Below, in pieces: positions 7,003 to 8,491 of a stretch of 8,491 nt of DNA. The position numbers and the translations under genes were made by a program. The stretch comes from a virus (Duplodnaviria > Heunggongvirae > Uroviricota > Caudoviricetes), in IMG/VR virus record IMGVR_UViG_2548876935_000015. One strand, given 5' to 3'. The stretch's first letter is position 1; every line of letters begins with the position of its first letter. The notes beneath the pieces were generated by a model. That model searched no databases. It saw nothing but the letters and a program-made list of their open reading frames with translations, and was not told the DNA's origin.

Positions 7003-7827
7003 ATGTCTCAGAACTTAGACGCAACCGCAATTAATCAAATCCATGCTCTTATTTCTGCTCAGGGTGTTAATGAAATTATCAGTAAGATTGGTGCCGATGC
7101 CGTGGCATTGCCTGAGAATTTCCGCATTCATGATCTGGAAAAATTTAATTTAAATCGCTTCCGTTTCCGTGGTGCGCTTTCCACTGCCAGCATTGATGAC
7201 TTTACCCGTTATTCTAAAGATCTTGCAGATGAAGGCACCCGCTGCTTTATCGATGCCGATAATATGCGAGCCGTCAGTGTGCTTAACTTGGGTACTATTG
7301 ATGAACCAGGTCACGCAGATAACACCGCCACTCTCAAACTGAAAAAGACAGCACCGTTCTCTGCCCTGTTGTCTGTTAACGGCGAGCGTAACTCCCAGAA
7401 GTCACTGGCAGAATGGATTGAAGACTGGGCCGACTACCTTGTGGGCTTTGATGCTAATGGTGACGCCATTCAGGCAACAAAAGCGGCTGCGGCAGTCCGT
7501 AAAATCACGATTGAAGCAAACCAGACCGCTGATTTTGAAGATAGTGACTTCAGCGGCAAACGCTCCCTGATGGAATCTGTCGAAGCGAAGACCAAAGACA
7601 TTATGCCAGTGGCATTTGAATTTAAATGCGTTCCGTTTGAAGGCCTGAAAGAACGTCCGTTTAAATTACGCCTCAGCATTATCACTGGCGATCGTCCTGT
7701 ACTGGTTCTGCGCATTATTCAGCTGGAAGCAGTGCAGGAAGAAATGGCTAACGAATTTCGTGATCTGCTTGTTGAGAAATTCAAAGACAGCAAAGTAGAA
7801 ACCTTTATTGGTACTTTTACCGCCTGA
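7003..7827 (+). CDS. yfdQ: YfdQ-family prophage protein (DUF2303), 274 aa
   Basis: ATG at 7003 with GTGAGGA 7 nt upstream; long clean ORF. Length and sequence ([21 protein letters not shown]...) match YfdQ of CPS-53-type prophages as I recall it. Confidence 0.85.
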
Positions 7828-7839
7828 TTTCCTTACTGC

Positions 7840-7861
7840 AAATGCCCCTGCGGGGGCATTT
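7840..7861 (+). terminator. GC-rich hairpin between yfdQ and yfdR (possible attenuator or weak terminator)
   Basis: AAATGCCCC-TGCG-GGGGCATTT (9-bp stem); only a short T-run follows, so termination efficiency is uncertain. A second small hairpin (TCGCC-TGAT-GGCGA followed by GGGTTTTCTTT) lies at about 7885-7910. Confidence 0.3.
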
Positions 7862-7954
7862 ATGGAAACATAATTGACTCAATAATCGCCTGATGGCGAG
7901 GGTTTTCTTTAACCAAAATTCAGCGCGGTGCAGCGCATATACGTGGAGAACAAA

Positions 7955-8491
7955 ATGTCATTTATTAAAACTTTTTCCGGGAAGCATTTTTATTATGACA
8001 AGATAAATAAAGACGACATCGTGATTAACGATATCGCGGTTTCCCTTTCAAATATCTGTCGCTTTGCAGGACATCTTTCACACTTCTACAGCGTCGCCCA
8101 GCATGCGGTGCTTTGCAGCCAGCTGGTACCGCAGGAATTTGCTTTTGAAGCGTTAATGCATGATGCAACAGAAGCGTATTGCCAGGACATCCCGGCTCCA
8201 CTGAAACGCCTTCTTCCTGATTATAAACGGATGGAAGAAAAAATAGACGCCGTAATCCGTGAGAAATACGGGTTACCCCCGGTTATGAGCACACCTGTGA
8301 AATATGCCGATCTCATCATGCTGGCAACCGAACGCCGCGATCTCGGACTTGATGATGGCTCTTTCTGGCCTGTACTGGAAGGCATCCCGGCAACAGAGAT
8401 GTTCAAAGTTATTCCACTGGCTCCGAGCCATGCCTACGGGATGTTTATGGAGCGCTTTAACGAGTTATCGGAGTTACGCACATGCGCATGA
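7955..8491 (+). CDS. yfdR: HD-domain phosphohydrolase, YfdR-like (putative 5'-deoxynucleotidase), 178 aa
   Basis: ATG at 7955 with GGAGAA upstream. Translation MSFIKTFSGKHFYYDK... contains conserved His and an HD dipeptide (AGHLSHF, AQHAV, LMHDATEAY) typical of HD-domain metal-dependent phosphohydrolases. The stop coincides with the window end. Confidence 0.85.
   Translation: MSFIKTFSGKHFYYDKINKDDIVINDIAVSLSNICRFAGHLSHFYSVAQHAVLCSQLVPQEFAFEALMHDATEAYCQDIPAPLKRLLPDYKRMEEKIDAVIREKYGLPPVMSTPVKYADLIMLATERRDLGLDDGSFWPVLEGIPATEMFKVIPLAPSHAYGMFMERFNELSELRTCA

Follow-up and report, generated by a model that had tools for sequence, protein, structure and literature searches.

The yfdP, yfdQ and yfdR genes of an Escherichia coli prophage remnant, and the apparent coupling of yfdQ to yfdP rather than to yfdR across phages

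Introduction

The genes yfdP, yfdQ and yfdR are best described in Escherichia coli K-12, where they are part of the yfdP-yfdQ-yfdR-yfdS-yfdT cluster of prophage CPS-53 (KpLE1). In multicopy, yfdQ and yfdR together with either yfdS or yfdT form the minimal set that inhibits initiation at oriC (Noguchi & Katayama 2016, PMC4776307). In this assay yfdP is dispensable, a plasmid carrying yfdQR only did not suppress hda-185, and extra copies of the set inhibited initiation in the wild type as well as in several over-initiating mutants (PMC4776307). The replication phenotype needs multicopy expression; deletion of yfdQRST had no effect, and the authors themselves allow for an overexpression artefact (PMC4776307). 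[quoted passage not shown] In pull-downs, YfdQ, YfdS and YfdT showed no high affinity for either YfdR or DnaA (PMC4776307). Later work regards YfdR as a prophage product that competes with DnaB for domain I of DnaA (PMC12122000), and deletion or overproduction of yfdQ alters the production of the co-resident phage SW1 in K-12 (preprint 10.1101/413146).

The likeness of YfdR to other proteins that bind DnaA concerns the target, domain I. DiaA and DnaB use DnaA Phe46, the residue on which YfdR binding depends, and binding of SirA of Bacillus subtilis depends on the equivalent Phe49 (PMC4776307). Unlike DiaA and SirA, YfdR is an HD enzyme, and its effect in vivo needs other prophage genes. As an enzyme, YfdR resembles YfbR, the housekeeping 5'-deoxynucleotidase of E. 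coli, both being HD-domain metal-dependent phosphohydrolases with reported dNMP specificity. According to Zimmerman 2008, as cited in PMC4776307, K-12 YfdR is a dNMP phosphohydrolase and a structural homolog of YfbR, but binds nucleotides far less tightly than YfbR does; binding of DnaA by K-12 YfdR is a further difference between the two proteins.

The same three genes are found in functional temperate phages, namely as orf32-orf31-orf30 in SfV, sb37-sb36-sb35 in ST64B and 046-048 in phiNP, where they are located in an early-left operon between cI and xis-int. The gene order in SfV is cI - orf33 - orf32 (YfdP) - orf31 (YfdQ) - orf30 (YfdR) - orf29 - orf28 - xis - int. A 2025 study in Genome Research described the yfdP-yfdQ-HD cluster as frequent in the early-left operons of lambdoid phages (ST64B, phiNP, LLS and ArgO145), noted that no function is known for yfdP or yfdQ, and judged a hidden recombinase role for the cluster unlikely, as it coexists with complete recombination modules (PMC12315714).

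A sequence-only reading of the DNA examined here had described YfdR as an HD-domain enzyme with an unknown partner, possibly acting on host nucleotide pools or signalling nucleotides. However, yfdQ already has a genetic role in the inhibition of oriC, and the documented target of YfdR is DnaA, not signalling nucleotides (PMC4776307).

Results

Near-identical copies of the CPS-53 genes

The DNA analysed here comprises 8,491 nucleotides (IMG/VR record IMGVR_UViG_2548876935_000015; hereafter, the window). Positions 7003-8491 extend exactly from the start codon of yfdQ to the stop codon of yfdR, which forms the final three bases of the window; yfdP lies outside this segment, to which the sequence-only reading was confined. 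The features of this part of the window are as follows:

6575 to 6937, plus strand: yfdP, 120 aa (Pfam PF27127 YfdP; PHROG_204)
7003 to 7827, plus strand: yfdQ, 274 aa (DUF2303, PF10065; PHROG_210)
7841 to 7909, plus strand: part of the yfdQ-yfdR spacer with two hairpins (terminator scan, sequence and fold)
7955 to 8491, plus strand: yfdR, 178 aa, HD-domain phosphohydrolase (RefSeq annotation as 5'-deoxynucleotidase)

YfdQ matches PF10065 over residues 7-272 of its 274 (E = 4 × 10−92; 308.7 bits, with a curated cut-off of 26.6), a full-length match that places it in the DUF2303 (YfdQ) family, and matches PHROG_210 with E = 4 × 10−120. YfdR matches PHROG_318, ‘deoxyribonucleoside 5' monophosphate phosphatase’ (E = 1.7 × 10−109), and its nearest solved relative is Atu1052 (2gz4; E = 5.6 × 10−14), which we take to have the HD fold. 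This homology, along with the residues H...HD...D, assigns YfdR to the HD-domain phosphohydrolase superfamily; the annotated 5'-deoxynucleotidase activity presumably corresponds to EC 3.1.3.89. The gene names and domain content (DUF2303, HD phosphohydrolase) given by the sequence-only reading were correct, as indicated by PF10065, PHROG_210, PHROG_318 and RefSeq. In the program-made list, the open reading frame that contains yfdR spans 7928-8491 and has a GTG start, whereas the RefSeq start is the ATG at 7955, which is preceded by GGAG 6 nt upstream and yields the 178 aa product.

The order and spacing of yfdP, yfdQ and yfdR are the same in the window and in CPS-53, with 95.8% DNA identity over 1,936 bases and 92.5% identity of YfdP. 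Compared to K-12 MG1655, YfdQ is 98.9% identical (3 of 274 residues and 13 nucleotides differ) and YfdR is 97.8% identical (29 nucleotide differences and 4 substitutions among 178 residues, N151K, G158S, D170E and K176T); the YfdQ of SfV is also 98.9% identical to that of the window. The low number of amino-acid changes with respect to K-12 suggests that YfdQ and YfdR are still constrained or were only recently acquired. The two genes are near-identical copies of the studied CPS-53 genes and, in this sense, were already known. The find itself is ordinary: the K-12 versions have published biochemistry and genetics, and the 1,992-base stretch 6500-8491 is present at an identity of at least 95% in about 2,760 of 5,426 complete E. 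coli genomes, that is, in more than half, with the genes annotated as yfdQ and yfdR.

A prophage remnant without the immunity region

The window represents what remains of an E. coli prophage. On its minus strand, positions 1-6173 hold a Qin-like late region with an Rz-like gene (DUF2514), lysozyme, DUF1327, holin and cold-shock genes with cspA-type leaders. An Rfam scan of the window identified two cspA thermoregulators, both away from yfdQ-yfdR, and no other match. Unlike in CPS-53, the upstream side of the yfd genes is joined to this lysis and cold-shock-gene region through a 9.8-kb deletion, and two further features mark the transition:

6171 to 6173, no strand: deletion junction (9,843-bp deletion relative to strain CFSAN004176, with a 3-base overlap at the junction)
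6250 to 6560, plus strand: frameshifted remnant of a hypothetical gene, 5' of yfdP (RefSeq pseudogene at 11751-12061 of the CFSAN004176 locus L001; G+C-rich stretch, 52-54%)

Window positions 1-6173 correspond to locus L001 up to position 1829 and window positions 6171-8491 to L001 11673-13992, with one mismatch. The block that is deleted with respect to CFSAN004176, the usual place of which is between cspF and yfdP, contains genes for a Q-like antiterminator, DUF968, KilA-N, RusA, Dam, PerC/yfdN, a replication-type HTH protein, Ash, the cro-like ymfT and the cI-like ymfK. We considered whether the window might be an artificial splice and rejected this possibility because several public assemblies contain the deleted arrangement as contiguous sequence, with 99.97% identity over all 8,491 bases (GCA_012583315.1, GCA_000940355.1, GCA_000703225.1 and GCA_000947315.1). 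Other strains retain the 9,843-bp block.

Past yfdR, homology to SfV and K-12 ends a few bases beyond the stop codon. In strains with this arrangement, yfdR is followed by genes for a LysR regulator, a hydrolase, an MFS transporter and an opposite-strand integrase that differs from that of CPS-53, and the yfdS, yfdT and torI genes of CPS-53 are absent, with neither yfdS nor yfdT found downstream of yfdR. SfV, ST64B and phiNP retain both the immunity region and the orf29/orf28 (YfdS/YfdT) genes, whereas the window lacks both. The set that inhibits initiation in K-12 is incomplete here, with yfdQ and yfdR present and no yfdS or yfdT downstream. Because yfdS and yfdT are absent and the repressor and replication block is also lost, these genes by themselves would not be expected to produce the published multicopy phenotype in this strain, and the locus in a strain with this arrangement is best seen as a conserved remnant.

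Comparison with intact relatives shows where the genes originally belonged. In SfV and in the undeleted locus of CFSAN004176, they are located just beyond the cI-like repressor gene and read away from the cro-like gene, on the strand opposite to the cro/replication operon and upstream of xis-int, which is the arrangement of lambdoid early-left (pL) accessory genes. The early-region prophage position proposed by the sequence-only reading holds by comparison with these two loci, although the repressor side, and with it the immunity region, is deleted in the window. The yfdP, yfdQ and yfdR genes are most likely early-left-operon accessory genes of an SfV/ST64B-type lambdoid E. coli prophage. A promoter scan detected 3 promoter-like sites compared to 4.2 expected by chance, and no promoter was identified for yfdPQR in the deletion variant.

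YfdP is the constant neighbour of YfdQ

Queries from E. coli, Pseudomonas and Vibrio led to 163 loci in annotated phages and viral contigs that encode a YfdQ homolog, and we searched the open reading frames of these loci with iterated profiles of YfdP, YfdQ and YfdR. A viral-contig scan with the Acinetobacter YfdQ as the query yielded no matches. The YfdQ homologs of the 163 loci, which range from E. coli to Vibrio, Pseudomonas, Xanthomonas and Acinetobacter, fell into 28 clusters at 85% identity. With a gap window of 0-399 nt, 26 of the 28 clusters have a YfdP homolog encoded directly upstream on the same strand, and the number is 27 when one open reading frame that overlaps by 28 nt is included; the remaining cluster is a truncated YfdQ open reading frame. 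Gaps between yfdP and yfdQ among cluster representatives ranged from 0 to 219 nt. By comparison, a YfdR-like HD gene is adjacent downstream of yfdQ in 3 of the 28 clusters (the E. coli type, phiNP, and 4 of the 26 members of a cluster at 60% identity) and is present elsewhere within 3.5 kb in 4 further clusters. In the other clusters, the gene after yfdQ encodes SSB, a DUF1351-type protein, a membrane-anchored coiled-coil protein or an unrelated unknown protein.

The same relationship is apparent from taxon profiles. In a collection of 50,697 phage records, YfdQ was found in 184 (Escherichia, Vibrio, Stx phages, Xanthomonas, Salmonella, Shigella and Pseudomonas) and YfdP in 175 with the same taxon profile, whereas YfdR was found in 324 records with a wider and different profile, led by phages of Bacillus, Caulobacter, Escherichia, Vibrio, Rhizobium, Pseudomonas and Stenotrophomonas. 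Judging from these gene neighbourhoods and profiles, the evolutionary unit is yfdP-yfdQ, not yfdQ-yfdR. The YfdP-YfdQ module is conserved in temperate phages of enterobacteria and as far away as CP2-like Xanthomonas podophages and phages of Vibrio and Thalassomonas, and yfdR is a separable cassette that is located downstream of yfdP-yfdQ in some lineages; both patterns are newly described here. Most phages that carry YfdQ have no YfdR-like gene. Because of this, the core job of YfdP-YfdQ cannot be that of a helper of YfdR, and the primary role of YfdQ must lie in the YfdP module. The ‘pair’ of yfdQ and yfdR put forward from the sequence alone is real in so far as the two genes are adjacent here, but the HD gene is optional and the constant partner of YfdQ is YfdP.

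The two genes are separated by a spacer of 127 nt that folds at -34.9 kcal/mol (z = -3.05 against shuffles). The hairpin at 7841-7860 is strong, with an 8-bp G+C-rich stem and without a U tract, and the hairpin at 7886-7899, followed by a T-run (to 7909), is terminator-like. These hairpins probably represent a module boundary or an attenuator, as predicted from sequence, and their location between yfdQ and yfdR is consistent with a module boundary at this place.

A possible plasmid leading-region family was considered for YfdQ and rejected, given that the 23 matching plasmid records include many of chromosome size and several of phage-genome size, and only one predicted conjugative plasmid.

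Conservation of the YfdR enzyme site

The metal-binding residues of YfdR (H50, H69-D70 and D119), along with E73 and D78, are at least 95% conserved among 62 non-identical homologs of 32-100% identity. The conserved metal site indicates that the enzyme site is maintained, which argues that catalysis matters and not DnaA binding alone. YfdR falls below the cut-offs of the YfbR-type models, both for PF12917 (24.3 vs. 25.9 bits) and for the NCBIfam equivalog NF003009 (19.9 vs. 122 bits), and accordingly scores as a member of a separate HD subfamily rather than as a YfbR ortholog.

YfdQ and YfdP proteins and the structure 9o7m

A profile search for YfdQ among 1.84 billion representative proteins identified 1,843 clusters (50% identity) at E ≤ 0.001. 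Among the best 150 of these, almost all are single-stretch matches of 264-288 aa, few are fragments, and none is fused to another domain. Residues that are invariant in at least 90% of 145 sequences (32-54% identity) include E46, R56, H104, Q132, E140, D141, R166 and R223, and the family is acidic, with pI values of 4.7-5.9.

Profile and fold searches for YfdQ, a check proposed in the sequence-only reading, showed no similarity to any solved protein in the fold library, and neither the YfdQ model nor the YfdP model matched a solved fold (library to 2026-04-08, without 9o7m). The YfdP model (pLDDT 71.7) consists of one long helix and three long strands and has no informative structural neighbour. 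Profile comparison of YfdQ with YfdP gave a probability of at most 0.2%. A Rad52-type annealing protein, suggested by the beta-beta-beta-alpha end of YfdQ, was dropped as a candidate after comparisons with Erf-like and RecT-like profiles likewise gave probabilities of at most 0.2%; neither profile nor fold similarity places YfdQ among the single-strand annealing proteins (Erf, RecT/Red-beta, Rad52 fold).

The one PDB entry returned by a sequence search was 9o7m (‘YfdQ Protein’), in which a 274-aa homolog, matched over residues 16-273 (E = 1.2 × 10−44), is present as 36 chains. The 9o7m sequence is 98.8% identical to a protein of Xanthomonas phage MET23-P3, a CP2-like podophage, and belongs to the same family and has the same length as the YfdQ of the window, with about 37% identity. 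In this phage, as in the window, a YfdP homolog is encoded directly upstream of yfdQ; in contrast to the window, no HD gene is found beside yfdQ, which is followed by a DUF1351-type gene, recognised by its homology to an annotated gene of Vibrio phage vB_VpP_1, and by genes for an Erf-like recombinase, an exonuclease and SSB. The 36 chains suggest a large oligomer or filament, or else crystal copies; the chain label ‘C’ of the example chain was considered as a sign of DNA strands, but a label is no evidence. Literature searches found no paper describing 9o7m, and a bioRxiv cryo-EM paper on the CP2-like phage Xacm4-11 gives other PDB codes, without YfdQ. Two MET23-P3 proteins neighbouring YfdQ are not in the PDB.

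Discussion

The explanation that we prefer, and to which we attach middling confidence, is that the window carries the yfdPQR genes of an SfV/ST64B-type prophage, a cluster that damps host initiation and consists of a yfdP-yfdQ module and a separable yfdR cassette. During lytic growth, the cluster would damp initiation on the host chromosome, an effect that was shown in K-12 in multicopy and is extrapolated here to natural infection, and DnaB and precursors might in this way be released for the phage. YfdR would serve as the DnaA-binding component and YfdQ as a required helper.

It is also conceivable, albeit unlikely in our estimate, that YfdR acts on nucleotide pools only, as a phage dNMP phosphohydrolase by which the supply of deoxynucleotides is reshaped in infection, with DnaA binding being an overexpression artefact and YfdQ functionally unrelated. 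Such a role is compatible with the strict conservation of the HD metal-binding residues across 32-100% identity, with the annotation of PHROG_318 as a dNMP phosphatase, with the presence of YfdR-like genes in 324 phage records including those of Bacillus, Caulobacter and Rhizobium, groups that do not appear among the leading taxa for YfdQ, and with the artefact caveat raised by the authors of PMC4776307 themselves. It is at odds, however, with the binding of purified YfdR to DnaA and the importance of Phe46 (PMC4776307), as well as with a nucleotide affinity that, as cited in the same paper, is far below that of YfbR; moreover, a phage with ordinary DNA would have no evident gain from dNMP hydrolysis. 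Another explanation, which we consider improbable, takes YfdP-YfdQ to be an accessory of phage recombination or ssDNA metabolism, with YfdQ as a DNA-associated oligomer and yfdR as unrelated cargo. Genes for SSB, Erf or RecT, an exonuclease, a DnaQ-like exonuclease or DUF1351 adjoin the module in Vibrio, Xanthomonas and Stx phages, the 36 chains of 9o7m suggest a large assembly, and the family-wide invariant residues include R56, R166, R223, H104, E140 and D141. Nevertheless, the coexistence of the cluster with complete recombination modules argues against this role (PMC12315714), and so do the lack of fold or profile similarity of YfdQ to Erf, RecT or any other solved protein and the acidity of YfdQ throughout the family; the 36 chains, for their part, could be crystal copies.

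The early accessory slot, the position that these genes occupy in SfV and CFSAN004176, often houses counter-defence genes. The sequence-only reading had proposed manipulation of nucleotide pools or signalling nucleotides in infection or superinfection exclusion. Taken as counter-defence or defence, this would mean that YfdR hydrolyses immune signalling or other non-canonical nucleotides, or that the pair excludes superinfecting phages. The slot and the altered production of the co-resident phage SW1 (preprint 10.1101/413146) are in line with this idea, but we found nothing that supports defence or exclusion as such and regard it as very doubtful. A search of PADLOC-DB 2.0 models with YfdP, YfdQ and YfdR returned no family at E ≤ 0.01, thus placing none of the three in a known defence system, and known anti-defence genes did not accompany them in any of the loci examined. 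The genes of intact relatives belong to the early-left operon beside the repressor gene and, by analogy to lambda, a lysogen would keep them silent, which speaks against exclusion. Furthermore, the work cited in PMC4776307 documents no substrates other than dNMPs, and DnaA is the sole partner on record.

The wider role of the module can be framed more tentatively. The SSB, Erf/RecT and exonuclease neighbours, the reported MMS/H2O2 sensitivity of K-12 mutants and the replication phenotype point loosely to DNA replication or repair. Possibly, though we rate this as somewhat unlikely, YfdP-YfdQ is a widespread and strictly coupled two-gene early module (with about 1,800 YfdQ clusters at 50% identity and near-constant length) in which both folds lack solved relatives, YfdQ is a large homo-oligomer, and the two proteins act on host DNA replication or repair by an undescribed mechanism, with YfdR being just one among several downstream effectors that can replace each other. 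The newly deposited structure may soon clarify YfdP-YfdQ, an early module that is common in phages and has neither an assigned function nor a recognisable fold. In work on YfdQ, the partner to include is YfdP, which stays beside it even in distant phages, rather than YfdR.

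Deletion upstream of yfdP and genes beyond yfdR

Comparison with L001, the undeleted locus of E. coli strain CFSAN004176, shows that a 9,843-bp deletion removed the prophage antiterminator, replication, cro-like and cI-like genes, with a junction at positions 6171-6173 of the window and a 3-base overlap (L001 1829/11673). The deletion is polymorphic among public E. coli assemblies, several of which carry it, whereas others retain the block.

Features discussed in the text (coordinates in the window unless another locus is named)
1305-1721, -: Rfam match to the cspA thermoregulator
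1351-1566, -: CSD ORF (cold-shock protein), 71 aa
1927-2424, -: rzpQ / DUF2514 ORF, 165 aa, annotated as an Rz-like spanin
1977-2273, -: 98-aa ORF
2547-2954, -: phage lysozyme ORF, 135 aa
3276-3848, -: DUF1327 'YdfR family' protein
4737-5176, -: Rfam match to the cspA thermoregulator
4800-5015, -: cspB-like cold-shock ORF, 71 aa
5316-5528, +: cspF-like cold-shock ORF
6250-6560, +: frameshifted hypothetical gene (RefSeq)
L001 about 14025-14220 (10524-10718 in L168, another comparison locus): small ORF after yfdR, past the window end, starting MNNLMTTKQVAEFCGVSISTVLRW

The frameshifted hypothetical gene upstream of yfdP is G+C-rich (52-54%), and the long ORFs that overlap on both strands in and around it (6257-6937, +, and 6278-6763, -) are by-products of this stretch. 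Beyond yfdR, the small ORF occupies the place where yfdS/yfdT would be; after it come genes for a LysR regulator, a hydrolase and an MFS transporter, and then an integrase. This ORF is not annotated in RefSeq; judging by its first residues, it looks like an AlpA/excisionase-type helix-turn-helix protein.

YfdP and YfdQ homologs

In the O104:H4-type Stx2a phages (P13374 and relatives), two short ORFs of 63 and 45 aa stand in for a single YfdP homolog (3591-3937 in L086, the P13374 locus), YfdQ is intact downstream, and no HD gene follows yfdQ. For the YfdP homolog in Xanthomonas phage MET23-P3 (L082 5532-5906), GenBank gives the product as 'translation elongation factor', apparently in error; phmmer yields nothing beyond very weak matches (E about 0.2-0.9) to the Lon protease C-terminal region. 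For YfdQ, the structure of a homolog has been solved (PDB 9o7m, 36 chains); this entry is absent from the fold-search library ending 2026-04-08, and a literature search found no accompanying paper.

Cold-shock and lysis genes

The two Rfam matches to the cspA thermoregulator, which score 159 and 110 bits, cover the cspB-like and CSD ORFs, each with its upstream leader; the third cold-shock ORF, cspF-like, had no such match in the Rfam search of the window. The lysozyme ORF is shorter than K-12 RrrQ (about 177 aa) and may reflect truncation or an alternative start. The 98-aa ORF lies entirely within the rzpQ ORF in a different frame, the same nesting as in Rz/Rz1 gene pairs. The DUF1327 gene adjoins the holin gene; despite the look-alike name, YdfR is unrelated to YfdR.
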